Shown: piece after piece, positions 3,993 to 34,100 of the stretch
How the letters are laid out: each line of letters begins with the position of its first letter
How positions within the stretch are numbered: the stretch's first letter is position 1
Notes under the pieces: model-generated
What the model was told of the DNA's origin: nothing
Seen by the model: the letters and a program-made list of their open reading frames with translations, nothing else
The model's database searches: none
DNA from: Candidatus Omnitrophica bacterium UBA6233
Lineage (GTDB): Bacteria > Omnitrophota > Gorgyraeia > Gygaellales > Profunditerraquicolaceae
Length of the DNA stretch: 64,000 nucleotides
Assembly: GCA_002440965.1 (NCBI GenBank)
Contig: DJWJ01000026.1
Location: forward strand, 23,439 to 87,438
Direction: 5' to 3'
Position numbers and translations under genes: made by a program

Positions 3993-4075
3993 AAACACCC
4001 CCTTTTTTTAAGTTAAAACTAAAAGTAAAAAGTTGAAATCCAAAACCCTTTCTCTCCTTCCCCCTCCGTAAAAAA

Positions 4076-7276: not shown

Positions 7277-7280
7277 TTTT

Positions 7281-8153: not shown

Positions 8154-8174
8154 ATTTATTACTTAAATCCGAAG

Positions 8175-8320
8175 ACCGGAGCCCAAAATTCAAAGTTCAA
8201 AGCTCAAAATTCAAAATAGATCTAAATGACAAATATCCAATGACAAAACTTTAGTTTTAGATTTTGACATTTGGTTTTGGGATTTATTTTGGATTTTGAA
8301 TTTTGTCATTTGTCATTACA
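8175..8320 (-). repeat. Leader cassette repeat, copy C (degenerate, non-genic, between the SBP and permease genes)
   Basis: On the minus strand: TGTAATGACAAATGACAAAATTCAAAATCCAAAATAAATCCCAAAACCAAATGTCAAAATCTAAAACTAAAGTTTTGTCATTGGATATTTGTCATTTAGATCTATTTTGAATTTTGAGCTTTGAACTTTGAATTTTGG. It contains a 31-codon remnant ORF MTKFKIQNKSQNQMSKSKTKVLSLDICHLDLF* that is homologous to the MTKSKIQNKS…LSFDLCH leader. Confidence 0.7.
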
Positions 8321-8322
8321 AG

Positions 8323-9631: not shown

Positions 9632-9692
9632 ATCTGTCCTCCTATAATATAGTCATTTCCGGCTATTTTCTTATCTAAAGGCGGAATATTAA

Positions 9693-9721
9693 AATTTAAC
9701 ATAAGTTACTGGAAGGGTCAA
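9693..9721 (-). promoter_or_regulatory. Candidate sigma70-type promoter (TTGACC-N17-TAAATT) upstream of the SBP/permease genes
   Basis: Read on the minus strand: TTGACC (9721..9716), 17 nt, TAAATT (9698..9693), in the 115-nt gap between the PilZ stop and the SBP start. Sequence match only. Confidence 0.25.
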
Positions 9722-9746
9722 GGCTTTTATTCAGGTTTTATTGCAA

Positions 9747-10061
9747 TTAAACGGCTCTTAAAACCCTGGACATCCCCATAAAATCCGCTCTCTCCAAGCT
9801 TACCCCGATATTATACTCGCTAGGATTGACCATCCTTGACCAGGCAACTTCTCCCCGGGTATAGAATGGCTCGCCTTTGTCCGGAACATCCAGCCATATC
9901 TCTAGCGGGGTGCGAAGCCTTAATTCCTCCTTCGCCATAAATCCTATGCCCTTAGCGCTGATGTCCCTGGTCTCTCCGGAACCCTCCACACTTGCCCTCG
10001 GATCAATGAATCTTAAGGGGAACCTAGCCTGAAACCGTTCAAAGATTCTTCGGTCATCCAT
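9747..10061 (-). CDS. PilZ-domain c-di-GMP-binding protein
   Basis: 104 aa. It has an RxxxR motif (RRIFERFQARFPLRF) and a D/NxSxxG motif (DISAKGIGF). The SD-like GAGGGGG lies ~8 nt upstream of the ATG. It begins 40 nt after the giant ORF's stop. Confidence 0.8.
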   Translation of the reverse strand: MDDRRIFERFQARFPLRFIDPRASVEGSGETRDISAKGIGFMAKEELRLRTPLEIWLDVPDKGEPFYTRGEVAWSRMVNPSEYNIGVSLERADFMGMSRVLRAV

Positions 10062-10101: not shown

Positions 10102-13100
10102 CTACGGCTTTATTATATTCTTATTCTGTTTTTTTTCAACTTTTACCTTATTATTTTTCCCTTCGGCCAGGTTTCTCCATAACTGCTTGACTACATAATA
10201 ACTCTTCCTGGGAATGCGTTTATTCAAGCCGTTCTCCGTCTCTTCGGACACTGCCACAATCCCAAACCATTCCTCATTCATATTTTTATTGTATTTAGCT
10301 CTTATATCATGGTAGTAACTTCCGTTGGACCAGTTCGATTCGGTATTATGAGCCTTCCACCCGTCGCTGTTATTACATTCCTGGGCGGATTCATTATGCT
10401 TCCACCATTCATCTGTCCATTCAAACATTATCCCGCCTAAACAATTGCCCATGCCTTCTTTACTGCCGGCTAAATTTTCATAAATCTGACGCCACTGCAT
10501 CTCCAGGAAATACGCCTGCATATTCTGGTCTTCTTTGTTTAAATAGGCGTCATACGCGTCAGCGCCAAACTCTGCCACCAGAATCGGCTTATCAAGATCG
10601 GCCTTTACAGATTTGAATAAATTCCCGAAGGCCTTACCACGATAAATCATACAGGCGATTAAGTCAACGTCTTTTGTTACGGCCGCAGCCAAAGCTAGAT
10701 TCGTAATTTCACAATTACCTAAGGCTACCGGATGGTTAGGGTCTATTTTATGAATCTCTTTGGCCACTTCATTGACAAAAGAATAGTAAATCCTGGCGCG
10801 CATCTCGATTTGTTTCGAAGGATTCGGTTCTTTGTCGATTCCGCTGGTGCACCAAGGCCTAAATTGTCCGGAGAAAGAACGGTTATTTTCATTACCCAAA
10901 ATCCACATTAAGACTCCCGGTTCATCCTTATACCGATTAACCATTTCTAAAACTTCCCTTTTGATTTTTTCCCGGAAATCCTTAGCATTATACGCGGAGC
11001 AAGGCCCATCCCAGAGCCCCAAATCGTGGCCTAAAATAGTGCGGATACCATAAAGCTTGAAGAAATCCCTGATTACCTGCTTAACTGCCTGCGGATTCTG
11101 CCCAACCGTATAAATTCTGCCTGTATTCAAGCCCATATCTTGCATCAATTTTCCGTCGGTAATCCAAGGCTTACCCGGGTCAGACCACCAGTCATAATCA
11201 TAGTTCTGACCGATAGGTATAGGATTATAACAAACACCTTTAACAATATATGGCTTACGTTCGACTATCAACTGGTGATAGCTGTCTTTGGACTTATTGA
11301 TATAAACCTCGGGCTGAGGAACAGGAGAAATCTGCATTATAGCCATCAAAATAAGGAAAGCGAATAAAACCAAACAAAGCTTTCCTATCTTCTTAACTAT
11401 CCATTTTAATGGACAAAACAAATAACCGGAGACAAGAGCGGCTACGCAAACCAACGGTTTCAACTTCAAGGTAAGATTTCGTAATGCCAGCTTCGCATAT
11501 TCCCAAACAAGAGAATAAGGACGTTCGAATATTCTGGCCTGGGCTGCGATTGCTTCCGGGTCGCTGGAGAATTTTTCGTGGAAGGAGATTTGCGCGACTA
11601 TGAATCTTATTTCTTGAGGAGAAAATCCTAATTTGGCGAGCAGCTGTTCAGTTTCTTTTTTTCGGGCTTTATTCCAGGTTTTATTGGTAGCGATAGGATA
11701 ATCCAATATCGCGGCGTGCTCATCTTCGGTTAAATCTTGGATCAATTTTGCTAATCCTGTTCTTCCTTGCGGAGGCGCCTTAAGTTTACCTGAATAAATA
11801 AGATACCTTACTGCCGCTATCCTGAATAAAGCATTACCAAATTCATTGAACCGCAAAGAAATTCCCCGATGATCATAATAATCAAATTCGGCCTCATAAC
11901 AATCGCGGGCGGTGATAGCGTGCCCGTTCTGCCTGGATAGATTAATAGCGAATAATTTGGCTGCTCTGTATAAAGCAGGCGCTCCCCGCTTGATTCCGCC
12001 CTTATACCTTTCTATCGCCATTTTAGCCAGCCCGGGCGTAGCATATTTAGGAAGAGTCGCTTTCCCTATCGGCATAAAAGCTGCGAATTCTAATTTATCC
12101 CGGCTACCCTGGCCATTCTTATATTCCAACCCATATTCCTGGGAAATCTTTCCTGTTTTCTCCACTAAAAACGCGATCTTTTTTTCGTAAGCCATACTAT
12201 GAAAAGTATCGGCATTTTCTATAATACAATCTTTTAAGGCTTCTAAAGCTTTCTTGATTTTTTTGTCTTTTATAATAGCCAAGGAATAAAAATCTAAACA
12301 GGCCATGAAGAAAATGGCCAAGTCTGTCTTGTGCATCTTTAACCGGTTGTGCAATATTAAACTCCATACTTTCTTTTCTTTTTCCAGAAACCGTATATTT
12401 GGATTACCGTTTTCCCATAGTTTATATTCGATTAATAAACTCTGAAAAAGGGAAGATTCTCTACTATCTAATTCAATACCAAAGAATTTGGCCGTCTTGC
12501 GCAAAAACTGGCTTTTGTTTTCTCTTGTGTTCAATACCGCTTCTAATGCAAATCCGGGCGTAGGATATTTATAGACTATCCCTTTACCAAAAGGAACAAA
12601 AGCAGCTATTTCAAGTTTATCTTTTTCGCCATTGCCGTTGTTATAATTTAAATTATACCTTTGAGACAGCCTGCTTACCTCTGCTATCAACAAGGTTGCC
12701 TTTTTTTCTCTACGCAACTGTTTAAAGAAATGCCTTTTTTGGTACAGGAAAATAACTAATCCCCTGACAGCTTTATGTGTAACAACATCGCTGATGATTG
12801 TATTATCAACTAGCTTAACCCAGATTATCCATTGCGCGGCAATGCCGCCTTTGACTTTATTTAACTTATAAGAATAAAATACAGCTGATAATTCCTTAAT
12901 TTGAGCGATAATACCGGCATCCAAATGCGATTTTTCCCACGCCTTGTATTCGTTAACGGCATTGGTAAAACGCGCGCGCAGGCTTTCGGTAATTCTTTTA
13001 GATAGCTTTATACCAAAAGCATTAGCCCTCATAAGCAGAAGCGGATATTTCTTCTTTATTTGTCCTTGATCATGCATAAGCGCCTTTTCCAGTTCTCTTT

Positions 13101-16100
13101 TCACAATGCCCAGGGTGGGATATTTAGGAAAAACACCGCAGCCCATAGGCGTTAAAGCCGCAAATTCCAGCTTATCTCTTTCGCCTAACGCGCCATTATT
13201 ACCATACCCTAGACCATACTCTTCAGATAATTTATCCGCTTTTATCATTAAAACTCTTGTCCTGTATTCATAAGACATTGACTGAATATTACCTTTCTCT
13301 TTTTCCACATAATCCTTCAATGCCCACAACGCCCTTTTAGTCTGCGCGTCTTTAATCAAAGTTAAACCCTGGATATCCAACCATACCGATATGTAGGCGA
13401 CCGCATCTTTTCCTTTCTTATCTAACCTGTTACTCCTTAATAGTTCCCATAGCTTCTTTTCTTTCGCGATCAGATCTGCATCCTTTTGGGCGCTTTCCCA
13501 GTTGTTGTATTTGACCAGTATTATCTTGTACAGAAACCGGCACCCCTCGGTCAACCTGATGTTGAATGTCTTGGCTGCCCTGTAAAGCATCTGATCCCGG
13601 GCTCCGGATATCCAACTCTCTATTGCTAATCCGGGAGTATGGTATCTTGCGACTTTACCATACAACATTGGAGGCAAAGCCGCGAATTCCAGCTTATCTC
13701 TTTCTCCATTGCCGCAAGCATAATCCAAGCCGTAGCGCTTCGCTAACTCTTCGGCTTCCTTGGCCAAAAATCTTGCCTTGCCCTTGCGGCCTAATTTCAG
13801 GAAATATTCCTTGTCCAGGGATAAGGAAAAAATCAGTCTTTCAACCGCTTTCCTGGTAAGATAGCTGGAAATGGCCAGCTGGCTAAACAGCTTCATCCAT
13901 ACTATCCAGGGATAAATCGGATTTTTTGCATGAAAGAATTCCGTAAAGTTATTGCGCCGGTAGATATCCCAAATCTTTTCGGCCTGGCAGCGTAAATCCA
14001 GGGCTTCATTATCCTTATTATTATGCCTATACTCATCCACAGCTTTTTGATAGGAAGGCGGATTGGGAATGGATTTATTTAATAAGAAAAACTTGCTGGT
14101 TGTCTTGCTTGACCTGATAACAAACATGCTGCTGAAAAATCCGATAAATTTCCTGTCATCGCTTATTTTTCTCCTGACAGCTCCTAATACAGCCCTGCCG
14201 AATCTACTTTCATAGCCTCTCTTGAGCACCGATTCTTCAACATACTGTGCAACTTCACGGGAAAAATCAGCATTCGAGAATATAACCAATAATGCTGTTG
14301 TTAAACGAGATGTACACTCTTTTTTGGATTTCTCGGATAGAATATCTAGAATTACTTTAAACACATCTTCTTTTTTAGTTATGGTATTACCCACCCTATT
14401 CGCTATCGGTTTTTGATATTTTTGTTGGCCCGCTATCAACCTTAACCTCTTCAAAGATTTTTCTTCAATCTGCCTGACTCTTTCTTTTGTCAGACATAAT
14501 AAATCGCCGATTTTTTCAAGGGTCATTCTTCCGTTATCGAAAGAGAACAAGCCGTAACGCAGTATCAACACTATCCTCTCATCATCCTCTAATTTTTCCA
14601 ACATAACGCCTACGGCTTCCTTCAATATTGCCCTGCGGGTATTCTCCTGAGGAGAAGCAAACGTATTTTGTTCGATGAAACTTCCCTGGCTATCTTCGCC
14701 TTCCGAGCTGATTGGAGCATCCAATGATACAGGGTCGCGAATCTCAAGTAGCTTTTTGATTTTTTCTACAGGCAAGCTCATCCGCTGAGCCAGTTCTTCA
14801 GGAGCAGGTTCTCTTCTATATTCCTGTACGAACTTCTGGGAAATCTTCTCTAATTTATATTTTTTCTCCAACATATAAACCGGCGCCCGTATCATATGAT
14901 TCTTCTCCGAAAGTGCTCGGGTAATTGCCTGGCGTGTCCACCAAGAAGCATAAGTGGAGAACTTATTGCCTTTCTTATAATCAAATTTTTCGATAGCCGG
15001 GAACAATCCTAATCTTCCGTAGCCGAATAAATCATCGAATGTCATCCCGCAGCCAGGGTATTTTTTGATAATATCACCCACCAGCCCAAGATTACACATT
15101 ACCAGGCAGCCAGTAATGGTTTTTGTCTCTTCGGGGGCCTTTACCGCGTGAAGAGCTTTAAATAACTCAACCTCTTCTTCTCTGCTCAGGACGTAACGGA
15201 AATTTTTAAATCTAAACTGGGCCAATATTCTCCTAGCTAAGCCTAAGCCATCCTCTTTAATATTCTTAAACAGGACTTTTGCTAACCTCTCTGCAGCCCT
15301 TACGTTTTCTTTTTTATTAATTAAATGCCCGTGCTCATGCTCAAACAGTTCTATTAAAATGGCCTCTTGGTTTGCTTGGATAAGTTTGACTATTAATTCA
15401 AGGGGAATGATAATCTGGGAATTATAAAGGCAGGCGGCTATGAATCTTTCTATGCTATCATACAAAAGTAAGCCCGGAGGGCCTTTTGACCTGACATCCG
15501 AATCAGCAAGAAATAAATAAACATTCTCTTTATTGAGCCAGCGGATTAACTGGGGAGTCAAAGCCAACAACGCCTTTTTATCCTGAGGTAAATCCTTATA
15601 GCGAACAAGACGATTCTCTTTCTGTGCCTTGGAGATGACTTTCTTCGTCTGCTTCTTGGCTTTTTTATCCATAGCGCCTTCTTCATAAATTCCCAACCCG
15701 CAGGCAGAGACATCGGGATCTTCTTCTAACAACTCTTCAATTTTTGTCGTTTCCCGTCCTGAAGCAAACCAGGCAATGCCCACAGGATTAGGCAACTGCA
15801 ACAGCGTAAGCCGCTTTTCTTTAAGCGCAGAAACAACGGCCCGGGTTGAAACGGACACGATTAAGAATGCTGAAAATATTGAAAGGAATAGCATCGCAGT
15901 AAAAAGATTGTTGTAAGAAACAAAGGCACATATAAATAAAGTTATCCCGGAGAAACTGATAATGAAAGGTATTAATGCGCGGCCACGATGATCCGTTAAC
16001 CGGTTCGGGCCAGCTTCCTGAAACGCGCGGCTAAAGGCGCTTTCCGGGCCTCTATTCAACGCTATATCTTTAATTCGCCGGGCCACTCCTTCGGTAAATC

Positions 16101-19100
16101 CTTCGTCGGATAAAACTAACCGCAATGCGCTGGCTAGCCTGCCAAAAACTACGCTATTAGCCTTTTGATTCAAAATATCCACAATCTTTCTCAATACGGC
16201 CTCTCTATCGGCTAGAACATTCTCCGGAATCTCAACAATAGGTTTATTTTCTTTAATGGAGGCCTTGAATATCCTTTTTGACTTCTTGATTGCCGCCTCC
16301 TCTATCTGCCTAATTCTTTCCTCGCTTAAACACAGAAAATTCCCTATTTCTTTACGCGTCTTTGTTTCGCCAGAAGCGCTATATAATCCGTAACGCAAAA
16401 CCAATATTACCCGCTGGTTATCACTTAACTGTGAGAGTAATGTCCTTGTATTTTCTTTTAATATATACCGGTTCGCATTTACTCTGGGAGAAACGAATTT
16501 GTTTTGTTCAATTAAATCTAATAGGCTGTCTTCCCCTGCACCAAATGGAGAATCCAGGGAAATGGGGTCACAAGTTATAATGAGATTTTTAATAGTCTCT
16601 TCGGAAAAATCGGTAATTTCGGCTAACTCTTCCTGCGTAGGATCTCTGCCGAATTCCTGGGTAAATTTCTCAGAAATTAAGCGTAATTTAGATTGCTTCT
16701 TCTGCATATACATCGACACCTGCATCTTATGGGATTCCTTCCTGGACGCTCGGGTAATCGACTGGTATATCCACCAACTGGCATAAGTTATAAACCTATA
16801 ACCTTTTTTATAGTCATATGTTTTAGTAGCCCGCAATAACCCGAGATATCCTTCGCTAACGAATTCTTTTGTTCCTCTCCCACATTTTTTAGCTGTATCA
16901 ATAATAAATCCTAAATTGCACCTTAGTAGGCAATCGAGAATATCTTTTCTTTCGGAAGAACTGATCCCGTTCTCCAGGGCTTTGAACAATTCGATTTCTT
17001 CCTCTTGATTCAAGAGATACCCGCCGCCACATTTCAATTCTTCCAATATTCTTTTAGCCAGATGCCAGCCGTCCTCTTTGATAACGCTCAATAACTCTCT
17101 TGCTAATTCCTCCCCTTCGCCTGTGTCTTCCCGGCCGCCCAGAAGATGCCTCTTCTCGTGTTCAAAGAGTCTTATTAAAAGACTCTCCTGGCCTGCTTGA
17201 ATAAGTTTTGCGATTAATTCAAAGGGGATATAAATGGCGGAGTCGTAAGCGCAGGCGAGTAAAAATCTATCTTTATTTTCATACCAAAGGAATCCCGGAG
17301 GACCTTTTGACATTATCTTAGATGCAGGGAGGACTAGCTGGATATTTTCTTGGTTTAACCAATTCAATAGTTGAGGAGTAAGGACCAATTCCTGTCTTTT
17401 ATCCTGCGGCAAATCCTGATAGCGGAAGATGCGATTCTCTCTTAAGGCCTTGAAGATGATTTTTTCTGTTTCCTTTACCCCCTCCGCGTCCATCGCGCCG
17501 TCGGAAGTATAAATTCCCAACCCGCAGGCAGAATGGTCAGAAGAATTATGGATATCATGATATTGTGTTAGCTGCAAAAGGAAGTTCTTAAATTTTGGAC
17601 TGAAATTGTCAGATAATCCCAATGCCCACCTTAACACAATATCAAAAATATATTCTTCTCTGGTATTCCCTAAAATTGTTTCGGCAGGAGGATTAATCAT
17701 AAAAGTAGCGTGGTCGCAAGTAAGGATGCGGCCGTCGACACTGATGAATAAAAATATTTTATCCGGGCGGCGATGAGAGAAAATATCATCCATACTCAAT
17801 GGTTCCGCTTCCGGCAAAGACTTTGCCCCACCCTGAGCGATAAGATGATTTATATGAAACATTCTTTCGCCCCATATTATATATCTTTCATATAAGCCGT
17901 ATTTTTTAAGAATACGGAACCGGTTTTCCGCACGAGATAACCTTATATTATATGCAGCTCGCAGCCTTCCTTCGCGCCACCTATAACTTTCCTCAATGGC
18001 CTTGATAACCTTTACCATATCTTTGTCTCTTTTTTTCGCCTCTTTTTCATGCCACTGGTCAAGGGAAAAAACTAACTCAACATTATCAGGAATTTTGCCT
18101 AAAAATTTGTCCATCTCTTCATGGTCTTCTGGGAAAGATAAACCATTGGTATCTATATGAACCTCGCCGATGTGCTTGCTGGCGGACCAAAGAATTTCCC
18201 AGAAATCAGCCGAAGGCTGGTTATCCGTATAATTTTTCTTTTTGTAGGCAAAAGGCTCTCCGCCGACAAAATACACACTGGGAAATCCATCTAACTGCCG
18301 GATTATCCTTTTAATCTGATCCATAGGCAAGTCTACGTTAGGATCTTTCTCAATAACATCCTTGGCAATGCAAAATCTACATCTATATGGGCAGCGATGC
18401 GTTATCATAATATTGATATTCGAGTCTAATTTCGGAAACTCCGTCTTTAGGAGATCGAATAAAATCGCTACTCTTTGAGGGGATTTATTTATCATCTGGG
18501 CGGCCTGCTTTCCAACATCGGCTAAGACGCCGGCAGTGAGTTTTTGGATATTCCGGTCTTCGGCTTTTAATGCCTGGATAGCCGCCCGCAGAGTTCCATC
18601 CGAAAGTTTAACTACCCATGGTTTATCTGTCTGGCTTAAAGATTTAACTATCAATCTATAAGTGCGACTGATTTTTACGAAGTCCATAAGATAGGTAGAA
18701 TAAGGGGATCGCGCGCTGTCTTCGATAAACTCAGACTTAGCGATAATATAGTAGATATTTTCTTGCCGGTTTGCAGGTTGCCATCCTAATTTTGCTAAAA
18801 CTTCTATTGCGTCTTTCCAGCGATAAAGAAATCCGCTTTTTAATACTCCGAAAAGAAATTCTTCCAAAGCCCTAAGAAAAGGCTCGACTGCAGATGGGCC
18901 GATTTTAATCAAAGTTTCTATTATGCAATTACAAACACTCCAATTTTCTTGTCCGAATCCAGAGGCGGCTTTAAGCTCATTCTCAACAACAAGGTCATTT
19001 AAGGCTTTAATAAGGCAAGGAATTATGGGTGGGCCGATTTTCACTAATGTGTCCATTGTAAGATGACGGAAATTCCAATCATCATCGTTTAATGCTCCAA

Positions 19101-22100
19101 TAAGATAAAGAACCGCAGGCTCACCGATTCTAACTAAATCCTCCCATCTTTCTTTAGCAATAAAGTAAAGGATTTCTTCTTCCTGACTTACAGGCTGCCA
19201 TCCTAATTTTTCCAAAGCTTTTGCTGCGCATGCACGGACATAATGGCTTTTATCTTCCAAAGCTTTAATAATGACCTGCGTTGCTCTTATATCGCCAATC
19301 TCACCCAAAGTCTTTACTATAGGCATACGAACCATGGCATTATATTCACGATTAAATCTTTCAATCAAAGGTACAACTGCCCCTTTGTATCCAAAGTAAC
19401 CGAGGCTACTAGCTGCGCCGGCACGAACAAACTCATCGGGATGCCTTAATTTATATACATATTTTCCAAATTCTAACTCAAAGGACAGAACTTCTTGCGC
19501 TAAACTTTCTCCTTCTTCGACATTCTCTATGCCGATGGCTAAATCCCTATCTTCGTGTTCAAATACTCGGATTAAAAGCTCTTCAGGGAGTGAGATTATC
19601 AAGTCAAAAGTAAAAATATCCGGACAGGCTACTAAAAATCTCCTGGAATGCTCGTACCAAAGCATGCCCGGAGGACTTCTTGAATTTATACCTGACTCAG
19701 AAAGGACAATATAAGGATTGCGTTCCTCTAACCATCTTGCTACTCGGGGTGTTACTGCTAACTGCTCTTTTTTGTCTTGAGGTAAGTCTTGATAGCGTAG
19801 GAGGCGCTTTTCTTTTTTAGCTTTAAACAAAGCTTCCTTTTTCTTCTGCTGGGCTTTTTTATCAATTTTCCCTTCTTTTGTGTAAATTCCCAAACCGCAG
19901 GCATAGACATCGAAATCTCCTCCTGCTTTCTCCTTAACCACCAATGGTTCTGCCAAAGTATCTAAAGCTTCGACGTTCTTCTTTAAAATCAGTAAATTAT
20001 CCTCGATTTCCTTGTATAAGATGACTTCGGGATATCTTATCTCCTCCAAGGGGATAAAGAGATCTGGGTTTTTTATCTTTTGAAGTATAGCTGCTGTCTC
20101 AATCAAGGCTCCATTAAAACTAGCTATCGTATTTAGCAACGCAACCTTCTCCTGGACAACCCTATTATTCTTATTTCGAAGAGATGCTTCAAGAATAAAT
20201 CGCTCTTTCCTGAGATGCTTAAGATAAGCAAATATCTGTTCTTCTATTATTGGATTCAAACCCTCATCCTTGTTCCCCATGTGGTATTCCAATAACAGTA
20301 ATATTTTTTTCATCTCCCGAGAAAAATATTTTGCCATATCCAATGTTTTCTTTCGACTCTCTTGTAATCGATATGACACTAAGATACTGACTGTGCCTAA
20401 AAATGTTAAAAGACTTATCGCCATGTCAGCTAAACAACTAACCAGATTTCCCGCCATAAAGATCTCTTTTGTAAAAAGAAACACGGGAGAAAGCATTATA
20501 CCTGTGATAATCGACCCATTAACCAAAGCCGCCAGCGCCCGCTTGGGATCTCTTTCGATATACCGCATAAAACCAGGACGATAACCTGCTATAATAATCG
20601 TCAACATAACAGATGTAACAAACGAAGCGAGAGCAAAAGCAATAGCCGACACGGATAAAATCGTAAACTTAACGTATTCCCGCGGACAGACGATGCTTAT
20701 AAAAAAAGATAACAGAAGAGACAAGGCTGCTATAATTATTGATGTTTTTACTCCGCAAAACTGCGTTCTTTTGTTCAATCGGACTTTCCAAACAGACGCT
20801 TTCAATCTCATCCTTACCTTTGATATTATGAATATGGCTAATAGAGGTAAACTGAAGATACTAAAAATATAAACTTTAGAGATGCGGTTTTTTAATAAAA
20901 CTTTGGCTATAGTCTTACGAGTATCTTCATTCTTTTCGCTGAAGAGACTCTTAACAAGAGAAAGAAATGCCCGGAAGCTTATATTCTTTTTCCCGCCTAA
21001 GCCCCTGGCGGCGCAGATGCGGACATAATAATCTTTGTCTTTTAATAATACGCTGGCCAGGCACTCTTCTGTTTTAAGGCCGTTAAAATTACTTAGCGCA
21101 TTGACAGCGGATGCGCGCACGCGCTGATCCGGATGGTTAAGCGCTGCTTCGCTTATGAATTTGGCGCTTTGCGCGGTTCCAATCTTCCCGAGAATGCGGA
21201 TTGCGGTATCGACAGACTGCCACCTTTTGTCCGATAACAAAACGTCCTCAAGGAAACTGACGGCCGAAGGCTCCATGCTACCAAGGGTTTTTTCAGCCAT
21301 AAAGCTAAGGCTATGATACCTGGAATCCAAGTCGTAATACTTATACAATGACAATTCTAAAAGAAGCCATGCCGCCGGATCGCCTTTCTTCTTTAAAGCG
21401 CCCCAATCCCGCCTAGCCAGAAGATAAAGAATCCCCTGCCATTCGCTCTCAGGCTGCCATCCCCAATTAGCAAGCGCCTCTGCCGCAGCAAAACTGACCC
21501 AAGGATCCATATCCCTAAGCGCATCCGCCAATAGAGCCCTGGATTCAGGAAGATCAACCCTGCTTAATTCGCGCACTATGGCCAAACGCTCCTGCCAATT
21601 TTTATTCCCGAATCCTTTTTCCAGGATAATATCGGCAATCTTATTTCCACCTTTACCGGCTAGAATTCCCTGTGTGTCTAAACGAGCTATCAGTTTCTTG
21701 GCCCTGTAAAGGACGATCTGCTCTCTTGCCGATGGCGATATAGCATTCGTAGTCTCAGGGCAATACGTGGCAGAAATAGAGAAAAACACACCGGCCGCAA
21801 AAATAACTCTCAAGATAATCTTTTTTGAATGAAACAGGTTATCTTTTATTTTTAAAAGGGCATTTTTTAGACGACGCATAGCGTAGGACAAAATCTCGGC
21901 ATAACCGGCCCTAAAAAGAAACAAACCATATCCCCAGGAGGGAAGAGTAACAATCATTTCTTCTTTACCGAAAGTAACCAGGACACTCTTCGAGCAGAGT
22001 TTCGCTATAAATCTGTTGTTTATTTTTCCCGGCACTCCGGAGTTGCCTTTATAATAATCAAGAACAGTATTGAAGTTTATTTTAATAATTACTGGATAAA

Positions 22101-25100
22101 GCGAGTGATTAACAAGGACTATGGCGTCTTCTCCGGGCAGGTGCCGCACAAAAGGCACTAACCCTGTATCTTTAATATCAACTTTTCTCCCGCAGAATTC
22201 TATTTCTTCCAAATATGCGCTGAAGAATCTTCCCTTACGAAAAACAGGCCTGGATATAAATTTAATCAACTCTGTGAGCGGCCTAACCGCCAGGGAATTA
22301 TCTTTTAAAACATCCGGGTAGGAAAACTGATAAATACCCGCGTCAGGATTCTTCATCATTATGCGCGCTCCCGGAGGAATTCCCATACCGAAAAGCTGAC
22401 GCAAAGGGATAAGAACATACCCGGGGACAGCATAAGAAATCATTGCCGCAGCCATAAGGCGTTCCATGCCGCCAAAAGCGGCCATTGCCGGAGGCTCATC
22501 GTGAGTTTCGACAAAATGAACGCAGCGGCTTAAGAACTCTTCCTTATGCTCACCCATAAATAGATATCCCCGCAAAGAAGCAATATTCCCTTCTCTAAGC
22601 AAATCGTAGAGATATTTATCATAAGGAATCATCCCGCATTTCTGCAGCGTATCATGCGTCCCATAACCATAAGTTTCAGCCAGCATCAACATATTCGGAT
22701 ATTCCTTGCGGGCATCCTCCCAGAATTCATTAGGCATTGATTTTTGGAATTCTTCCCAGCTTATCCCTAAAGGCTCAACCCAGGTCTTCCAGGTATGCTC
22801 TTTTAACCCCAGGTGCGCCAGATCCGCCCTGAAACCGCCGTTATGGGTAAGATAAGCGATCTTGGCCATTATCTCCTTGATCATGAATCTGCGCGCCCTT
22901 TCATCAAAATAATTCACCTGGGCCAGGTTTATCATCGGCGGGTTCTGTTCAAAGAAAGCGTTTTCCCGGGCATGCATAAAAATAAGCCCGGATGTTTTAT
23001 CCTGTGAAAATGAGTGGTATTCATTTTCTATTAAGAATTTCAACTGCTCATCGCAAAGCCCCCGCGACAAGTTGGGAAAATATCTACGCGCCAATTGAAC
23101 GAATCTCTGGTAATCACCGCTTATTGTTAACTCCGGAGCTTCCTTGATTAATGGTGAATCGGCGGCAATATGGTTAGTTACAAAATCAACGACGACCCTT
23201 ATATTTTTGTGTTCCAAGTTTTCGGCCACCGCCCGGAAATCTTTTTCATTACCGGCGACTTTCGGATTAATGCCGTATTTATAGACATCGTAGCCGGAAG
23301 GGCCCCTCTTCAATGTCTCATTATCTTCCTTGTTCCACTTCTGCATCAATTTCCCGGAAAGCTCGCTTTCTTCCCATGACGCTTTAAACCAGATAACTCC
23401 GATACCCATCCCGGAAAGCCAATTCCAAAATCCCGCGGGAACCCTGTCTACGGTTCCATAAGTGTTACTTAAAGCGCGGCCGTCAATTTCAGTAATTATC
23501 TGCGTGGATTCTTCGGGGGGCCTGCGGAATTCGTTGCTCAAGACAGCGATGGTAGATATTCTTTCCATCTCACGGATATAACTTTTATCAATCTCCGCGA
23601 TTTCTTTTAATTGCTCCACGCCCAGGAGAAACGCCCCTAATTCTTTTCTGTGGTCTCTGTAATAAATGTGGGCATTATGACAAGCGCGTTTATGCGCTTC
23701 TCCCGGAGGGCAATGTAATTCCTTTAATTCTCCTGATTCATGGAGACAGATATCGGGAAGCAATATTTCCTGCAGGCGAGAGTCTTCGATAAGTAACCAG
23801 TGGATAACAAACACCAAAGTATTTGCGTATCTTTTGATTTCAAAAAACTTCCCGTTCTTTCTGCCAATAAGTTCAACTTGTATTTTTATCTGCGGCGGAG
23901 CATGGATTAAAATACCTTCCAGCACTTTTTCTACCTGACTAAGTAAACTCTCTTGCTCCATTTCCGTAAGTTTCCCGCCTATTAAAAATATTCTCAACCC
24001 GGCTTCCCCGTTCTTCTTTTCCAAAAATACCTCCGGCTTCCTAACTTCTTGTTTTGCTGTCCCATGATAACCGCGAGGATCTTCTTCATTTGCGCTCCCT
24101 AGCCAAAAATTAGTAGAGCCGGCTACGGGCTTGGATTGTTCGGCTAAAAGTTGATTAATTATATTCAGTATTTTTCCGTAAGGGTCGTTGCCTTCAAGTA
24201 TACCCTGGCTGAATTTTCTGTATAATTCCTTATATTTAGGATCATAAAATACTTTGGCGGTCTCCTGCCTTAAATCCCTGTAATCGGTTTCTTCAAGCTG
24301 ATCCGGAGTTTGATTCCGGATAGGATAATAATTAAAACTGCAAAGTATCCGCTCAAGTTCTAGAGCTTCGTCGTCAGCCAGGATCTTTTCCTTGTTAAAC
24401 TTTATGATCTTATCTATAAGGTTAACGAACAACCTCGCTTTCCATTCCCGCGTTTCGTATAAAAATACCTTTCCAGCGGATATAGCTTCGGTTAAGCTCA
24501 TATCGCCGGTAGTAGCGACCGGTAAATCTGATATGACAACGAGTTTACTAAAAAGTTCGTGCGGTAAGATACCCGAAGGCGCGATAGTCACCTCTGAACC
24601 TCTGCGTGAGGTTGCCATACTACCGGAACCCATATATCCAAATCCTCTTTCCATTGCCTCCTTGCGCAAATACTCTAGCTCCTCTACCCCATTGGCTGAA
24701 ACGAATATCAATTTATTCTTCTTTGCGAATTCCCTGCTTTCTCTTTCGGAAAAACTCAACATCTGCAGATATTCAACAGCCGAATTATAGACATAAACCA
24801 GGCCGATAAGTGCCTGGCTAAAGTCATTTAAACGAAGCGGGCTGATTTCTTGAATGCCGCTTACCGCAAAGATATCAGAAATAACCTTTTTCCTTTCCGC
24901 AAGCTTTTCTTGAGAATTTAAATTATCGTAATAGGCTTTATACTTAAGAATAGCCGATTCAACAAAGAACCCAATGGCTTCTTTACCAAATCCGGCCTTA
25001 AGCATCAATGCTGAAGGCGACTTGTTCTTCTTAACAGAAGAGGATATTCTCTTAACAGGCGGCACATAATCATATTCTTCCAGGGAGATTTTAATATTCG

Positions 25101-28100
25101 GGGTTCCTCTCAATGCTTCAAAAACGCTTTCTTCCCACCCTTCACTTACAGAAATAAGGATATCCTCTTTTTTTAGGTCTTTTTTGAGAGCCTCTATTTC
25201 CTGAAAAGCTATTTCAACCCCGCTGTCGGCAAGGAATCTGCCAAAATTAATCTTTATAACTTCGTTAAATACGGCCTCATCTTCGGGCCTTCGTTTTACA
25301 TTAACTAATTTTAGTTCTACTTCCGGGACCAATTTTTTTAATCCCTTCGCAAAATTGGCCGCTTCTGCCGCATCACCGCATCTGCCAAAATGCCTGAAGA
25401 GAACTATTATCCTCCCTTTTATCCCTGACGAAGGCGGGCCGCAGATTCCATTAGGCTGGACATTTTGAGGCTTAAGGTCTTTAAGTGGAAGGGGAGAATT
25501 TTTATTCAAGGTGTAATTTTTTAAAAGAAGGGTATCGAGCGCTTCCTTTATCAAAACCCACATTTCCGCTTTTCGCGAGCCGATCTCTGCCAAATGCAAC
25601 TGATACACATCCTTAGTCAGCTTCTTTAATTCCAATAACTGTTTTACCTTTTCAGCGTTAAAAGATAATTCGAGTTCCTCGAAAGCCTTCTCCAGTTTTT
25701 CGGCAAGAATAAGCGCGGCGCGGGAATCATCGTCTTGCGGTATATTATTTAATGTCGCGGCGGCTAATCTAAACAGTTTTCTTTGTTCGCCGCGCGATAA
25801 TCTCCGGTTAAAATACTCTCCAAGCTCGCTTAGATAATCATTAACGTTAATATGCGCGGGCAACCGCCGCTTTTGGTGTTTCTTGGTTGCCGGTATGGCC
25901 ATCAAACTGCGGATAAGCGAACTGGTAATTACTTTCGAACAAGCGGCAGCCTTCATTATTGCCTCTATAAAGTCTTCATCCGCGCAGATAATAGAATCAG
26001 TGCCATAGCTCTCGCCATCCAGATGAGTGGACATCCAAAATACCGCCCTGAAATTATCCTCGGCCCTCTCCTTCCTCAAGGCGTCAATAAGCGCGTTCGA
26101 TTTCTGCAAAACAATATGTTCCAGCTGACAAAATTTTGCCTGTTCAACACAAACCTCTTGGCCTTTGTAAGGATATCTTTTGGAATCCCGCAGCAACTCT
26201 TCCACACTGGAATCTTTAACGCAGTATTCATCCCTGCCAAGCTTATTAATCCAGGCGGCAATATCTTTTATCCGGGCAATTTTAATTAATCTGTCCAACA
26301 TCAGGCTGTCTTCTCTAACGGCAATCTTGGATTTAAAAGTAAAACCTTGCAGGCTGTCCGCGTCTGCTACCACATCCTCATCCGAAATAATAGCGGCCGC
26401 CAGCAAATAGGCTATAGCCGGAGAAACCCTAAAATTGTATTTAAAATACCTCTGCGCAAGGATAGCGCAAGTGCAGGATACCGAATCTTTAATTTCAGAA
26501 TTTTTAGGCGCAGGAATATCGTTTAATTTAGGATGGTGGTCTATGATCGAGATTACCTCAAAAGCCCTGAGCTCTTCTCTTTCAACTCCGCTATAGTCAA
26601 ATGAGGCAAATTTTATTTTCCCTCTTGCTTCATCGGGCATCCGGGCAATCTTTTTGATCGGTTCTTCGATGTTTTGATAATAAATCATATCATTTTCTTT
26701 AATACCAACGTCCCCCAAAACATCCCTTGTCCCCTCATCTAAGCTATCATTCATTACCGGGAAATACTGAACCTTTTTTTCTTCCCCGGGGAGAATATTC
26801 TTAATTTTGGTAAAAAGATGCGCGCCCAAGAATGCCGAGATGCCGCCATCTTTTTCCTGAGTCCGATGCGGCAAGCAAATAACTATTTCTTCATTTATCT
26901 CTTCTCCCTTAGCAATCTTTTCCAAGTAGCCCGTGAGTTTCTGTAAGTTCTGCTCTTTTGAAAACTTTTGCAAATCGGAATCGAAATGCTCCGGAATAAT
27001 ACTTTTTTTGCTTAATAGTTCATTTTTATTTTTGCCTGAATCATCAGGATTTAAGGGTTTTAGGCCATTTATAAATTCATCCAAACCCTTGGCTATAGAG
27101 TTCTTGAATCTTTCAGCCGATTCCACAAAATCACGGTCATATTCAAGGAGCCGCTTTCCTTCCTGGACCTGGCTTAAGAAAATGGTTTTATTTTCTTCGC
27201 ATTTCTTATGCAGCTCCACAGGTTTGGCATATAATTTCAGGAATACTCCAAAATCATCTGCTCCCAAATCATTTTTAGCTGCCTGATAATACCCATACAC
27301 CTCTAAAAACATCAGGAATGACTGCCAACCGATTGCCGCAGACAAAAGATTAGGATAATCTTTAAGGATATTATAAACAGGCCCGCTGATGTAGATAGCC
27401 CCCCGCTTAAGAGAATGACGAATATAACAACGGGAACCGTTCTTGCCCTGCGCAAGAAAAGGATAGGCCTGGCCTGTTATCTCCAGAGCGACTATGTCGA
27501 GATTCCTTTCATCGAGGAACTTATTATAGGCTTCCTTAATCTCTTCCGGAGCCCATCCGTTTAAATACCCAAAGGCAGCCAAAGCGGAAATAATGCCCGG
27601 GGCAAGCTTTTTTATTTCCCGGATGGTTTTTTCAATACGGCTTCTCTCTTTAAACCTTCTGTCCTCACACCCCTTTTCGCTGGAGGAAAACTTAATATCC
27701 TTATCTCCCCACAATAAATACATACCTCTGCTTTTTCGAACCGACTCTTTTAAAATCTGTTCGGGTATCTCATCGACAGGCAAAAGCACTTTCTTTATCA
27801 GTCCTGCGACATCCGAGGAAAAGATATAGGTAAGGATAGATTTCATTTTAAAATAAAAATATTTCGGACGGACAGTCCCTTTTATCGCCGCTAAAAGGGA
27901 TTCATTGCTGGCCTCAACATAAAACTTCTTTTCTTTTTCTTCCCGCGATAAATTAAACTTAAGGGAATTTACGTCACTGATTTTTATAATCTTTATGTGC
28001 GACTTCCAGCGATTCAACAGAACATCCCGGTCAAAAGGCTCATTCTCCGTATCAATAGTTTTAACTGTTATATTCGCTACAGGAAGAACCCAGCTGATAA

Positions 28101-31100
28101 GCCTGAATAAACTTACTACCATAATATTGAGCAGAGGCCGTTCCTTAATATATTCTAATGTCTTTTTCAAAATTTTAAGTTGCTCGGTATTAACTGCGTA
28201 AGGGGCTCTTACATCCATTAAAGCCAAAGCAATACAATTGCTTTCCCAGGGCTTAAGCCCGGCCTCATCAAAAAGAGACAAAGGAAGGTTTCCCTCGGGG
28301 TGAATACTTCCATCAATCAATTCCCATTTTCTATATTCTCCTTTATACTTACCTATCCATATTACCGGATTAAATATTACGGGAAGCGAAATACTGGCTC
28401 TTATGGCTAAGTCTATGGGCATATCCGGGCAATTCTCTGCGTTTAGCTTCAAGAGCCTCTTAGTGAGGTAATCTACAGCTGTAACTGTCAGATTAAACGG
28501 GTAATTGGCTTCTTTAAGCTCACCGAAAGTGGGGATAAAACCAAACCTGTCTATTATAAGGCTTCTAATCCACTCTAATACGGCGTCTCCTTTAGATATT
28601 CCTCCGCGGGAAAGAAGATTCCAAGTGAAACCAATACTGCCAACGGGAGGGTTGGAGAATCCGGATGCGTCCGTATCGTATGCTTTTTCTTTGGCGGCCC
28701 TGGCATCATAACCAAGCATCAAGAATAAAGCGACAATTGCCCCTATTGACGTCGCTCCCAGATTAGTAAAACAATATCCTTCTTTTTCTATTGCCTCTAT
28801 AATTTGGTAATAACGTAAACCGTCGATGCCGCCTCCGGGAATTATACCGTAATCAATCAGCTTCTTGCTTTGCCGGTATTTTTCAATCTCCGGGATTACC
28901 TTTCGAATCTGCTCTTTTCTCCATTCTTTACATTCAATATCTGGTCCTTTGGTATCCGGCGATACTGCGGTTTTCTCCTTGTGTCTTTCCTTAAAATCGG
29001 AGATCTCGGCAGCCAGGCCGTGCCAAAAACAAAAGATGGCAAAGGCAAGCATAGGAATAAAGAAAAAAACTACCGTCAGGAATAAACAGGTGTTTTCACT
29101 TACGTTAGAACCCGGCCCCATGGGCCAACCGGCAGTTAGAATACCTGTTAAGAAAAAGGTTGTTAGAGATACAACAGGCAGGAATAAACGGAAAATGCGG
29201 CTGCGGATTCTCGCTAAAATACTGCCGGATTTACCGGCTGGCGGCTGGTTGCGCGCTTTATCCGGTTGAACGGAATTTTGTGTTTTGGAAGCGCTTTCGT
29301 TTTCCGGAAAAATAAGAATATTCAATTCGGTTTCTTTATCAAAGAAATACGCGCGTTTCATATCAAATACTACGTCTATCTCTGTGTCTTTCTTGGGCCG
29401 GCCTTTTGTAAAGACTGCCTTAAAATTAATGCCATCAACAGAAAGCCCAACCTCTGCCTTTGAACCTAACTCTTCAGTTATATCTACTTTTACATGCACC
29501 GCATTATATGGACTATATAATCCCTGAACCTGAACATTCTGGGCATATAGCTTATCGTATATATCATTTGGCCTTATGCCAAAAAAGATATCCTTATTAA
29601 CATAGCCGGATATTTGCTCCGCCATTGTATCGTCAATTTTTAGAATAAAATTTTCTCCTGCCTTAAAATAATACCCTTCATTTCGTAAAATCTTCCCTTC
29701 TATGAAATTCATCGATGGGGAACCGATAAAACCAGCGACAAATTTATTCTTCGGCTTATCATAAACATCCATAGGTTCCCCGATTTGCTGGATAGTGCCG
29801 TCTTTCATCACCATTATCCGCGTGCCCATAGTTAAAGCTTCAATTTGATCATGGGTAACGAAAATAAAGGTGGTCTCTTTGCCTAAACGCTGATGCAGCT
29901 TTTTCAGCTCGGTACGCATCTGGCCGCGCAGCTTAGCGTCTAAATTACTTAAGGGTTCATCAAAAAGAAAAACCAACGGTTTACGCACAATAGTACGACC
30001 GATAGCCACGCGCTGTCTCTCGCCGCCGGAAATATTACGAGGCTTCTTCTCAAGCAGTTCTACGATACCTAAAATCTGGGCTGCTTCCGTAACTTTAGCT
30101 TTAATCAATTCTTTCTTTACTTTTCTCAGCTTTAACCCAAAAGCCATATTCTCAAAAATTGTCATATGGGAATAGAGCGCATAATTTTGGAAAACCAGAG
30201 CAATGTTACGGTCTTTTGCCGGCGTGTCATTAACAAGATTGTTTCTTATATATATTTTCCCTTCGCTTATCTCTTCCAAACCAGCAATCATCCTTAGTGT
30301 AGTAGACTTCCCGCATCCTGACGGCCCGACTATAATAAAAAATTCTCCTTCATCAACCTCAAAATCTATGGATTTAACCGCATAATGCACCGGATCCTTG
30401 CTTCTGCCGGGATAAATTTTACTTAACTTAACGGCTCTCACGCTCTTATTCAAAGCTGAATCGCATTCTTTTACCCTATCGGCCTTTTGATTAGCTTCGG
30501 TTTCTGAATGCGCGAATAATCTGGTTTGGCTAAGTCTTTTTGCTTGATAAACTTTGATTGCTTTATAAATTTTATAGCCCAGATAAATCAGTAGCCCGGC
30601 AGATATAACCACTTTAGCTAAAACGGACAGTCCGCTTAAAAACGGCAAGCCGGCGAACAAGGATACATTGGCCGGAGAAACATTGGCATAACAATCCCGC
30701 ATTTTTTGGTACCGATCATTCAAGGAATTTTTCTTTGCGCCGTAAAATCTAAAAGACGGGGCCCTATCTTTAGAAAATATCCACTCCGGCAGTTCATCCT
30801 GCAGGATTTCTTCTTCCGGCCATAGCGGTATGCTCATCCAATCCATCCCGCTTATATCGATTGCGGCAAACAGCTTCCCTAATCTTCTCTGATGCGCCTG
30901 AGCAAAGAAACGGCCTCTCGCAGCCCAGGCGAGCGGAGCATCGGTTCCCTCTATTGCATGCGGACCCCTCTTACCAGTAAGGTAATCTAAACGTTTCCTG
31001 CTGTTTTTAAGCGGTATTCCTTCCAGAAGAGCATCCATCCATCCGCGAGTCTTTTCCTCGCTTCCCAGCTCTTTAGCGTAATCCAGAATATATTTTCCCA

Positions 31101-34100
31101 CGTATTCAATGGCTCGGTATCCTCTTTTGGCCAAGCTCATGAATTCCCCGAATTCTTTATAGGCGTATTCGTTATAATAAGGAGGCAATTCCAGGAACAA
31201 ATGATGCTCTTTAAGCCATGTCCTTATATTTTTATTCTCCAAGCCGGCGCTAAAAACCAACCTAAGCAGATTCAAAGTTTCCAGCCATTCCTCCTGCGGA
31301 TAGATGCCGATTTTTTCTAACTCTTTAAGCGCTTCATTAAAGGCGGGCCAGATTTCGTCTGAAGTAATATAGCGGTCAATGATTTTATGCACAAAATCAT
31401 CGTTATCAGGATAGTAGCAATGCAGTAATTCTTCGAGAAGCGTAAGAAAGATAACCGGGGGCGGGGCGCGGCTTAATACTGGATTCCATTGAATATATCC
31501 GTCGATAACGCAAGCCAGCCTTTCCAGGAGATGCTCTGAACTCAACCTTACATCCGGATTCTTGAGGATGCGGACAAATAAATCATTCGGTTGAGGATTA
31601 TTTTGCTGGAATTGGGCCATTGTTTTTAACGCCTCTGCTAAAGGTTCGACTAAGAATTGCGGCAAACTGCCTTTAAATTTCAGCGCGTTATTTTCTACAA
31701 ATAAACTGATCGTAGAGTCTTCATATTTATCCCCCTTATAACTTAAAGATTTATCAATCAGAAAACGCGAAGTATGGAAATTTGCAGATGGCGTTTTTGT
31801 TCCGCTGGATTTGCATAATATCACCTTGTTCCTGCCTGAACCTTTGGCCTGATAAAGCGCCTTATCCGCGCTATCTATTAACTTCTCAAAGGACATATCC
31901 GGTTTTAAACCAGCTACTCCTATGCTTACAGTGCACTTTAAACTCAACGCCTTGCCTTCATACGAGGCTACGAATTCATTCTTCTCGATTGCCTTTCTAA
32001 TATTTTCGGCAACTGTTTCACAAGCATCATTTTCCTTGGTATGCGGCAAAATTATCGCAATCTCCTCGCCGCCGTAACGGCAGACAATATCTCCGTCTCT
32101 GACCATTTTTCTTATCAATACCGCGATTTCCTTAAGAACAAAATCCCCGGTTAAATGGCCGAACTCATCGTTATATTTTTTGAAATAATCGATATCCAAA
32201 ATCAACAAAGACAAAGGATACTTATACCTTCGGGCATTCTTAATCTCTATGGGCAAATGTTCGTTGAAATACCCGCGGTTAAAAATGTTCGTCAGAAGAG
32301 GATCTATGGAAACCTTGCCCCTAAGCTTACGGTTCTCGGCTTTAAGAGTTTCGTTTTCCAGCAGGACTTTCCGGTATTCTTCGGAAGTAACAAGACAGCC
32401 CGGCTCTGAATACGCGTAATCTTTCAAATCGGAACCGCGTATGCCGCGCCTTACTCTATCGCTAATTTCTTCCAGCGACTTATGGTCTCCGACAGCAAAA
32501 GTCGGCGCGTTAGGAACTATCGCCTTATTCATCTCAACCAGCATCTGCGCCGCGCCAAATCCTATAAAGGAATTTATTCCGTATTCATCTTTCATCCGCC
32601 TCATAGCATCCGCCTGAAAAACCGGCCTCAAAAATCCTTTTTCCAATTCATCGCGGACATCACGGGCAGTTGTAATCACTCCCTGTGTCGCGGAAGAGGT
32701 AATTATAGGCACGCGGGGGCCACGACAAACAAACCCCTTTAACCAATCCCGCAGCTTATCCTCTGCGCCTATTCCGTAAAAACTGTTATGCACTGTCTTT
32801 CTTGCAGAATGCAAGAACCTAACTCTTCTAACTCCACTCTCTCTTGTAGTATTTATGAAAGACAGGATTTTTTCTTTTAAACTCTGCAGCTCTTCTTCCC
32901 GGAGGCGCGCCGCCAAGGTTAACAAAAACGGAGAGTTATCCGAAAGCATTTCTACTTTTCCGGGTATGAGTAGTTTTTCTATTTCCCTGCGGCTTACGCC
33001 TTGTATAAGAATCGTTGTATAATCCACATCTGTTCTTGCGCTGGTGTATTCTGTCAGGTTTCTGATATAACAAAGCCCCTGTTGTAACGATATGGCTCCG
33101 GATAAAACAAAAGATGTTATAACTCCTACGCTATATCCCTCAAAGAAACGGGGGGCAAAACTTTTTCCTGTTTTCTCGACAAAAACTTTATATGCCCCGA
33201 TTGAATATAAAAATCCCGCGAGGGCAAGGACTGAAAAGTTATTTTCGTCGGCGGCGAAACTATACAGCAATAATCTCTCGACAGGATATTTAGCTCCTAA
33301 AAACCGGGAGGCGCCGCGATACAACCTCTTGATAGCAGGATACTCATTATATAAGCCGCGGATGCCAGAGATATTCTGCTGGGTAACGGATTTCGTAGGC
33401 GGGAAGATACAGGCGATATCTTTAGCAGGATGAGTTAAACGGGAACAATCATTGTTTTTTAACCATCTAATATAACTGGAGTCCGGACTAAGGCCTGCCT
33501 CCGTGATATCTTCAATATAAGAAGATAATAAGATATTCCTTTCTTCTGCCAGTTCTAAGGTATAAGCGACATCTCTCAGATTCTGTTCGTTTTCAAATTC
33601 GGCATCAAATCTGCCAAAAATAAGATGGGATATCTCATGGAAAAACATCACCTGGGCAACGATATATTTTATATTCAGGTTGAAAATAGCATGGACTGTC
33701 TCGGGACAAATAAAGATCGCGGTTAGGCTTAGAGAGGAGACTTGCGCGGTATAAGGAGAATTTCTTTTGATCTTATCTACACCGATAATTTTAAGGATTA
33801 ATTCTTCCTGTCTTGTCCTGGATTTAACTGCTTCAATAAGCGCACCCCGGGCAGCTTCGGAGAAAACCTCTAACGTTTTATCTAGAAGGATACTTACATT
33901 TCTTGCTTCCGCTACCTTTTTAAAGTCTTTCTCTGCGGATACGATTATCTCTTTTTCCCCGGAAACGCCCTTCCTGCAGAAATCATCCGCTAAAGCGCAA
34001 CTGTCTTTTTGCATTTCCGAAGCCTGCCAATAATTACACTTTCTATCCTCCACAAGTATCATTCTACTCTTATACCGCACATAGCATCTTAACTGCTGCC

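Follow-up and report, generated by a model that had tools for sequence, protein, structure and literature searches.

The C-terminal part of a giant protein encoded by Candidatus Omnitrophica bacterium UBA6233 carries four tandem copies of an undescribed protein module, and this array joins a sigma-70 domain to a membrane anchor and a glycosidase-like domain within one polypeptide. The protein is the product of an uninterrupted open reading frame (ORF) of 17,939 amino acids (10102..63921) that contains the array and all its flanking domains. It lies in the window analysed here, a stretch of 64,000 nucleotides of contig DJWJ01000026.1 (GenBank assembly GCA_002440965.1); like the ORF, all window features described below are on the minus strand. 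The array itself spans 11938..14070 (aa 16618-17328). The four repeats are real, far beyond what chance would produce, and they tether the sigma domain covalently. As to what the array does, our preferred reading, held tentatively at a probability of roughly 40%, is that it forms a basic helical arm in the cytoplasm, which holds an RpoD-like sigma domain on a tether and may also regulate it.

Four diverged copies of an orphan helical module

Two short motifs, [ES][RK]DKLE[FI]AA (at aa 16740, 16914, 17099 and 17273) and [KR]Y.T[PL]G (at aa 16759, 16933, 17118 and 17292), each occur four times, spaced by 174, 185 and 174 residues. Phasing on shared landmarks, (E/K)Y..WE near the start of the unit and A(K/N).F.I.L at its end, gave four consecutive repeats with a period of 173-183 aa: R1 (13552..14070, aa 16618-16790, 173 aa, core at 13624-13734), R2 (13003..13551, aa 16791-16973, 183 aa, core at 13102-13218), R3 (12469..13002, aa 16974-17151, 178 aa, core at 12547-12657) and R4 (11938..12468, aa 17152-17328, 177 aa, core at 12025-12135). 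An initial annotation of this DNA had quoted these motifs and counted four tandem repeats, which the motif positions, BLASTP comparisons and profile count bear out. Its estimate of about 150 aa per repeat was too short, and its interval of 11962..13854 lies within the array but misses ~70 residues at the start of R1 and 8 at the end of R4.

When compared with one another by BLASTP, the units aligned over nearly their full length at 30-39% identity (E 2e-15 to 4e-35), with R2 nearest to R4 (39% identity, E 4e-35) and R1 matching the other units at E 2e-15 to 2e-22. A profile of the four units, which R1 matches at 252 bits, recovered exactly four copies, whether the giant protein or a six-frame translation of the window was searched. 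Tandem Repeats Finder reported no tandem repeat at the DNA level, indicating that the duplications are old and ruling out a recent DNA-level expansion. A chance or low-complexity artefact is likewise ruled out by the BLASTP E-values together with the signature of selection described below.

The four-way alignment contains 25 invariant columns, most of them in the core Y-x-L-x-Y-(loop)-G-x-D-K-L-E-x-A-A-x-x-P...Y-x-T-x-G, which in R1 takes the form Y-G-L-x-Y...GxGERDKLEFAA...KYxTPGxA. Three positions in the unit hold conserved aromatics (Y113, Y117 and Y143), while an alignment of eight units revealed no conserved Cys or His column and no zinc-binding HxxxCxxC (ZAS) motif. An EF-hand reading of the Asn/Gly-rich loop was tried and rejected. 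An EF-hand loop (DxDxDG) has 12 residues, of which position 8 is hydrophobic and position 12 is Glu; here, position 8 is K/R, positions 1 (Y) and 3 (A/C) lack conserved ligands, and no unit matched an EF-hand in Pfam. Readings of the core as a helix-hairpin-helix (HhH), a double-glycine (C39) leader or an Asn-Pro autocleavage site were discarded as misfits on inspection of the alignment.

The initial annotation could assign the repeats to no known family, and our searches led to the same result. Pfam gave no match on the array region at E<=1, nor on any of nine single units at E<=10. NCBIfam and PHROGs returned nothing meaningful for the module, and PDB sequence profiles reached at best E 0.03-0.24, with E 0.16 for the best match to a designed ARM protein. 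An AlphaFold2 model of R1 computed from the four-unit alignment (predicted local distance difference test score, pLDDT, 73.4; predicted template modelling score, pTM, 0.72) has ten helices and no strands, with residues 1-135 modelled confidently, and Foldseek searches with it against the PDB and BFVD returned nothing at E <= 0.001. A two-unit model of low confidence (pLDDT 56) was again all-alpha, with the secondary structure seen in the single-unit model. Self-comparison with hhalign detected no sub-repeat inside the unit. The same tool gave probabilities of at most 0.2% for kinship of the unit with the sigma domain, sigma tail, post-repeat module or HExxH module described below, which rules out that these flanking modules are degenerate copies of it.

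The same held for more specific candidates. The units have no profile match to a carbohydrate-binding module (CBM) family in Pfam or NCBIfam, and their wholly alpha-helical models show no CBM beta-sandwich, beta-trefoil or other beta-rich fold. They have no match to HEAT, ARM or TPR profiles and no 30-45-aa helix-hairpin sub-repeat. Nor is there a profile or fold match to known anti-sigma families (ZAS/ASD PF13490, RsgI_N, Rsd/AlgQ and FlgM), or a match to helix-turn-helix (HTH), HhH or other nucleic-acid-binding families. The initial annotation had named assignment to a known structural repeat such as HEAT or TPR as what would speak against a binding module; profile methods gave no such assignment. 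On the predicted structures, the module is an undescribed orphan all-alpha domain of ~175 residues, present here in four diverged copies.

Judged from the databases searched, the module is extremely rare and limited to a few uncultured bacteria, mostly labelled Omnitrophota. A scan of species-representative genomes identified two loci. The first, in Candidatus Omnitrophota STD1_202 (L001), encodes a protein ~97% identical over R1 and 86% identical over the last ~1,900 residues. The second (L002), in a metagenome-assembled genome labelled Planctomycetales, is a 5,362-aa partial ORF collinear with the C-terminal third of the window protein (70% identity over the amylase region, 48% over sigma plus units and 74% over the glycosidase domain). 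A HMMER scan of 1.84 billion 50%-identity representatives yielded two proteins, P0001 and P0002. P0001 (MCA9399659.1, Candidatus Omnitrophica; E 6e-6), a 510-aa fragment that fills a 1.5-kb contig and is cut at both ends, is the sole relative outside the orthologous giant proteins with a readable context. It runs from Sigma70_r4 through a 35-aa linker and one unit directly into transmembrane (TM) helices, and its 510 aa contain no glycosidase. P0002, encoded on a 503-bp ENA contig (L004, nt 181-456), is a fragment of 91 aa. Its short ORF ends after a match to the N-terminal half of the module alone, and may represent a copy that has been truncated or has degenerated, or else a small protein in its own right. 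A word-indexed search of 5.8 billion clusters returned nothing with profile A1, only P0002 with profile A2 and nothing with the P0001 module, and no module was found in two metagenome scans, one viral scan and a plasmid tblastn search.

Repeat number, which the initial annotation had thought might vary between strains, does differ between lineages, with four units in the window, four in L001, three in L002 and at least one in the P0001 fragment. The third L002 unit lacks the GxGE loop and is followed by ~1,100 extra residues that include a second post-repeat module. R1 and R2 are one-to-one orthologues of the first and second L002 units (120 bits each), and since R4 is closest to R2 and L002 unit 3 closest to L002 unit 2, the later copies appear to have arisen independently.

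By codon-level simple counting, which is approximate, the ratio of nonsynonymous to synonymous divergence (dN/dS) between the window and L001 is ~0.22 for the array (35 nonsynonymous and 42 synonymous changes) and 0.19 for the C-terminal glycosidase domain; the array is under purifying selection. Across aa 14690-17939 the synonymous divergence (dS) between the same two proteins forms a mosaic, at ~0.04-0.15 in the repeats and sigma tail and 0.23-0.54 in the glycosidase, sigma domain 2 and upstream parts, and large indels lie upstream. This mosaic suggests recombination within the giant gene.

An array between a sigma-70 domain and a membrane anchor

Two sigma-70 domains lie upstream of the array, domain 1 at 16264-16929 (regions 2-4) and domain 2 at 14419..15105 (aa ~16273-16501), the latter with Pfam matches to Sigma70_r2, r3 and r4. 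Both are RpoD-like, with RpoD_Cterm TIGR02393 as best match (E 1.5e-51 for domain 1 and 1e-69 for domain 2), and from their sequences they look intact. Between region 4 of domain 2 and R1 lies a conserved helical linker of ~115 aa, the sigma tail (14071..14418, aa 16502-16617), and a hydropathy scan detected no TM-grade segment between sigma domain 2 and R1. Homologous tails follow sigma domain 1 and the L002 sigma domain; that of sigma domain 1 leads into a TM hairpin (aa 15983-16024) with basic flanks on both sides.

On its C-terminal side, the array is followed by a post-repeat module of ~150 aa (11482..11937, aa 17329-17480) with the motif FRIAAVRYL..SGKL..PP..., which BLASTP aligns with two copies in L002 (aa ~3995-4145 and ~4620-4770; 40% and 32% identity). 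It has no Pfam or PDB match, scores an hhalign probability of 0.2% against the repeat and, by these profile comparisons, is a second orphan distinct from it. Next come a weak hydrophobic segment (11413..11469, aa 17485-17503; Kyte-Doolittle 1.6-2.05), present in the window and L001 and absent from L002, and a strong TM helix (11320..11376, aa 17516-17534; Kyte-Doolittle 2.46), which is kept in both relatives and has a Lys-rich N-terminal flank (KWIVKKIGK, four lysines). The C-terminal 405 aa (10105..11319, aa 17535-17939) form a predicted GH158-like glycosidase domain of clan GH-A type. This domain aligns with PDB 9oro (GH158) at E 2.8e-8, including the acid/base Asn-Glu and nucleophile Glu motifs (WILGNE with WALGNE, VAEFG with VTEFG), and by sequence it carries the features of clan GH-A and GH158; its Pfam matches to GH2_C and GH42 are weak and below the gathering threshold. 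The initial annotation was thus right to place the repeats between the sigma domains and the TM helix plus glycosidase, but not to place them just before the glycosidase, from which the post-repeat module, the weak hydrophobic segment and the strong TM helix separate them.

The array is a covalent link, with an RpoD-like sigma domain and its tail on the N-terminal side and the post-repeat module, membrane anchor and glycosidase on the C-terminal side. The four informative loci, from about three independent lineages, all show this arrangement: in each, the module follows sigma-70 region 4 and precedes TM helices, and the gap between region 4 and the module is 35-120 residues and free of any TM-grade segment.

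A further module of ~190 aa, ACGLGIY...FEHExxHL, occurs three times in the giant ORF (~15142-15726, ~16972-17550 and ~19342-19920; aa 16073, 15465 and 14674), and two of these copies, with an intact HExxH, lie directly N-terminal of the two sigma domains. The ORF contains four HExxH motifs where 0.29 would be expected. The module has no Pfam match; it could be a putative zincin-like self-processing protease that releases sigma.

Because no TM segment separates the array from sigma domain 2, and because sigma works only in the cytoplasm, we infer that the array is cytoplasmic and juxtamembrane, provided that the sigma domains function. Its composition fits this position: the units of the window and of L002 are basic (pI 9.3-10.05), and those of the window carry a net charge of +9 to +16 each (R3 being the most basic, at +16), which places them in the 89th-98th percentile within the giant protein, whose mean is +1.5 per 175 aa. 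Since the strong TM helix is Lys-flanked and is the sole one in L002, the glycosidase most likely lies on the opposite side of the membrane. Overall, we regard the topology with the array inside and the glycosidase outside as fairly probable.

In the mechanism we propose, the array would be the cytoplasmic arm of a single-polypeptide cassette of sigma, membrane and glycosidase parts, and would hold the sigma domain at the membrane. Through its conserved surface core it may bind sigma itself, or some other partner in the cytoplasm, and so act like an anti-sigma factor or an adaptor. Sigma might then stay out of reach until it is freed by proteolysis or by a conformational signal sent by the extracytoplasmic glycosidase or sensor. 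Partner binding by the core is suggested by its conservation, by the low dN/dS, by the recurrent place of the module after sigma and by analogy with the ECF52 and SigI-RsgI systems discussed below.

Several observations weigh against this proposal. The association with sigma comes from small numbers, about three independent lineages, and the topology from a simple hydropathy scan combined with the positive-inside rule; if the weak segment of the window and L001 spans the membrane, the glycosidase would be cytoplasmic after all. Model confidence is low for the conserved core and for the C-terminal helices of the unit, and what stays invariant in every lineage is chiefly G, P, Y and D, residues that may have a structural role only. 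A copy number that varies from at least 1 through 3 to 4 is easier to reconcile with a spacer or an avidity module than with an anti-sigma domain that binds 1:1. Finally, the sigma domains, embedded as they are within a giant polyprotein, are putative sigma factors.

A more far-reaching version, which we consider improbable, would have the module sequester a group-1-type sigma factor, as an anti-sigma-like domain of a new class, and would make the last ~1,900 residues a self-contained transmembrane switch, in which contact with a prey or environmental glycan would trigger proteolytic release of sigma. The parts of such a switch would be the HExxH module, the RpoD-like sigma domain, the tail, one to four orphan units, the TM helix and the GH158-like sensor or enzyme.

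Alternative roles of the array

The alternative that survives best, though we still find it rather unlikely, is that the array has no specific partner and serves passively, as a helical spacer or scaffold that determines how far, or how stiffly, the sigma domain is held from the membrane anchor. Lineage-specific copy numbers with independent late duplications would be expected of such an element, as would a generic helical bundle without a specific structural match and an invariant set made up chiefly of Gly, Pro and Tyr, and giant Omnitrophota proteins commonly contain tandem repeats with a scaffolding role (bioRxiv 10.64898/2026.06.07.730766). Pure linkers, however, are usually of low complexity and evolve fast, whereas here a 35-residue core is sharply kept among units that are otherwise ~30% identical, remains recognisable in P0001 and belongs to an array with a dN/dS as low as that of the catalytic domain. 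A passive role also leaves aside the specific recurrence of the module after sigma region 4.

The charge of the units raises a second possibility, namely that they bind DNA or RNA near a sigma-bound polymerase, or anionic lipid of the inner leaflet. Every unit in the window and in L002 is strongly basic by comparison with the protein mean, and the array adjoins both a DNA-binding sigma domain and the membrane. Yet the units match no nucleic-acid-binding family, the P0001 unit is near neutral (pI 8.1) and the giant protein as a whole is itself mildly basic (pI 8.7), so that we think such binding a good deal less probable than a spacer role.

The initial annotation offered a binding or spacer module, and suggested glycan binding by analogy to repeated CBMs. 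The general idea is a possible one, but a CBM-like role in the service of the C-terminal glycosidase is very unlikely, because the predicted fold is all-alpha, the array is linked to sigma, and a further module and the membrane anchor separate it from the glycosidase. In favour of glycan binding, the array lies N-terminal to the GH158-like domain in a glycan-utilisation locus, its units hold three conserved aromatics, and array and glycosidase would share the cytoplasmic side if aa 17485-17503 span the membrane. Known CBM folds, however, are beta-rich, and the array is contiguous with sigma, while a further module and at least one TM helix (exactly one in L002) precede the glycosidase. In L002, ~1,100 residues intervene between the array and the TM helix and glycosidase, and the P0001 fragment, where the module stands beside sigma and TM helices, has no glycosidase.

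Least probable of all is that the Gly/Asn-rich loops are recognition, processing or autoproteolytic sites of a giant polyprotein: processing has been proposed for giant Omnitrophota proteins (bioRxiv 10.1101/2023.11.21.568195), HExxH modules lie just upstream of each sigma domain and the loops hold Asn-Gly, but the motif misfits both the double-glycine (C39) consensus and the RsgI Asn-Pro autocleavage site, sits inside a folded helical unit, and has no loop in L002 unit 3, and no peptidase family was detected in the scanned parts of the giant protein (aa 1-10000 and 12940-17939).

Related systems, genomic setting and significance

Turning back to the proposed sigma tether, its parts follow an order known from other systems. 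ECF52 proteins of the extracytoplasmic function (ECF) type, such as Streptomyces coelicolor SCO4117, combine sigma, a zinc-finger anti-sigma domain, a TM helix and a carbohydrate-binding domain; their sigma domain has been proposed to be released by proteolysis (PMC5826349). The likeness lies in the order of sigma, cytoplasmic non-sigma domain, TM helix and extracytoplasmic carbohydrate-related domain in one polypeptide. The differences are that our protein has an RpoD-like sigma domain comprising regions 2, 3 and 4, whereas ECF sigma factors have sigma2 and sigma4 only; that an orphan 175-aa helical unit in one to four copies stands where ECF52 has its zinc-finger anti-sigma domain, with no ZAS domain and no Pro-rich linker; that the outer domain is a GH158-like enzyme rather than a CBM; and that the cassette ends a 17,939-aa Omnitrophota protein, while ECF52 is found in Actinobacteria.

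In the SigI/RsgI systems of Clostridium thermocellum, the outer sensor is a CBM or GH10, and RsgI6 consists of a cytoplasmic anti-sigma domain, a TM helix and an extracellular GH10 sensor (PMC10328401). Shared with the cassette described here would be a cytoplasmic sigma-holding domain (as we propose), a single TM helix, an outer sensor of glycoside hydrolase type and a glycan-utilisation context. Sigma and anti-sigma are separate there and fused here, SigI is ECF-like, and the array has no similarity to RsgI_N; no periplasmic Asn-Pro autoproteolytic domain was identified in our protein. The cassette therefore seems analogous, not homologous, to ECF52 and SigI-RsgI, and by no test of membership does it belong to either family.

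Among anti-sigma factors, the module invites comparison on size and fold with small proteins of another kind. Rsd/AlgQ and T4 AsiA are small all-alpha anti-sigma factors that act on group-1 (RpoD-type) sigma, Rsd being ~160 aa long. The module is likewise all-alpha and close to Rsd in size, with no match in the profile and fold searches. It also resembles HEAT, ARM and TPR solenoids in being all-alpha, in forming tandem arrays in giant proteins and in its possible scaffold role, but its unit has ~175 aa and ~9-10 helices without a sub-repeat, and HEAT_2 was readily found elsewhere in the giant protein, yet not in the units.

Beyond the cassette, the giant protein contains Pfam domains of the ROK, APH, HMGL-like (HMGL-like/homocitrate synthase), VWA, AAA_5, NHL, alpha-amylase, HEAT and radical SAM families, and ~50 hydrophobic segments. 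It appears also to have a MalK-like ABC ATPase segment near aa 11150-11500. Other duplicated TM-hairpin 'anchor' modules occur at aa 1173-1225 and 1889-1940 and at aa 5573-5591 and 6221-6239, with near-identical motifs such as ...QKGS.QVL..ALMAIAG... and RGSALGVVILS.LFASI.LFAIPALA. Downstream of the giant gene, co-directional genes (1574-10061) encode a PilZ protein, a sugar ABC solute-binding protein, two permeases, two GH2_C-like proteins (781 aa and 440 aa) and one unknown; from these predicted functions, the genomic setting is one of glycan uptake.

Giant Omnitrophota proteins of this multi-enzyme type have been described (bioRxiv 10.1101/2023.11.21.568195, 10.64898/2026.06.07.730766), and the word 'sigma' is absent from both preprints. 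The organisation, processing and regulation of these largely unannotated proteins form an open field, to which the array contributes a new domain family, usable as a profile and tied to an overlooked feature, namely intact-looking RpoD-like sigma domains in a giant membrane protein. Should the array prove to be a spacer only, it would be a routine addition to lineage-specific helical repeats. If it does hold or regulate sigma, these polyproteins would come with their own transmembrane devices for gene regulation, and a further fold would join those known for anti-sigma domains.

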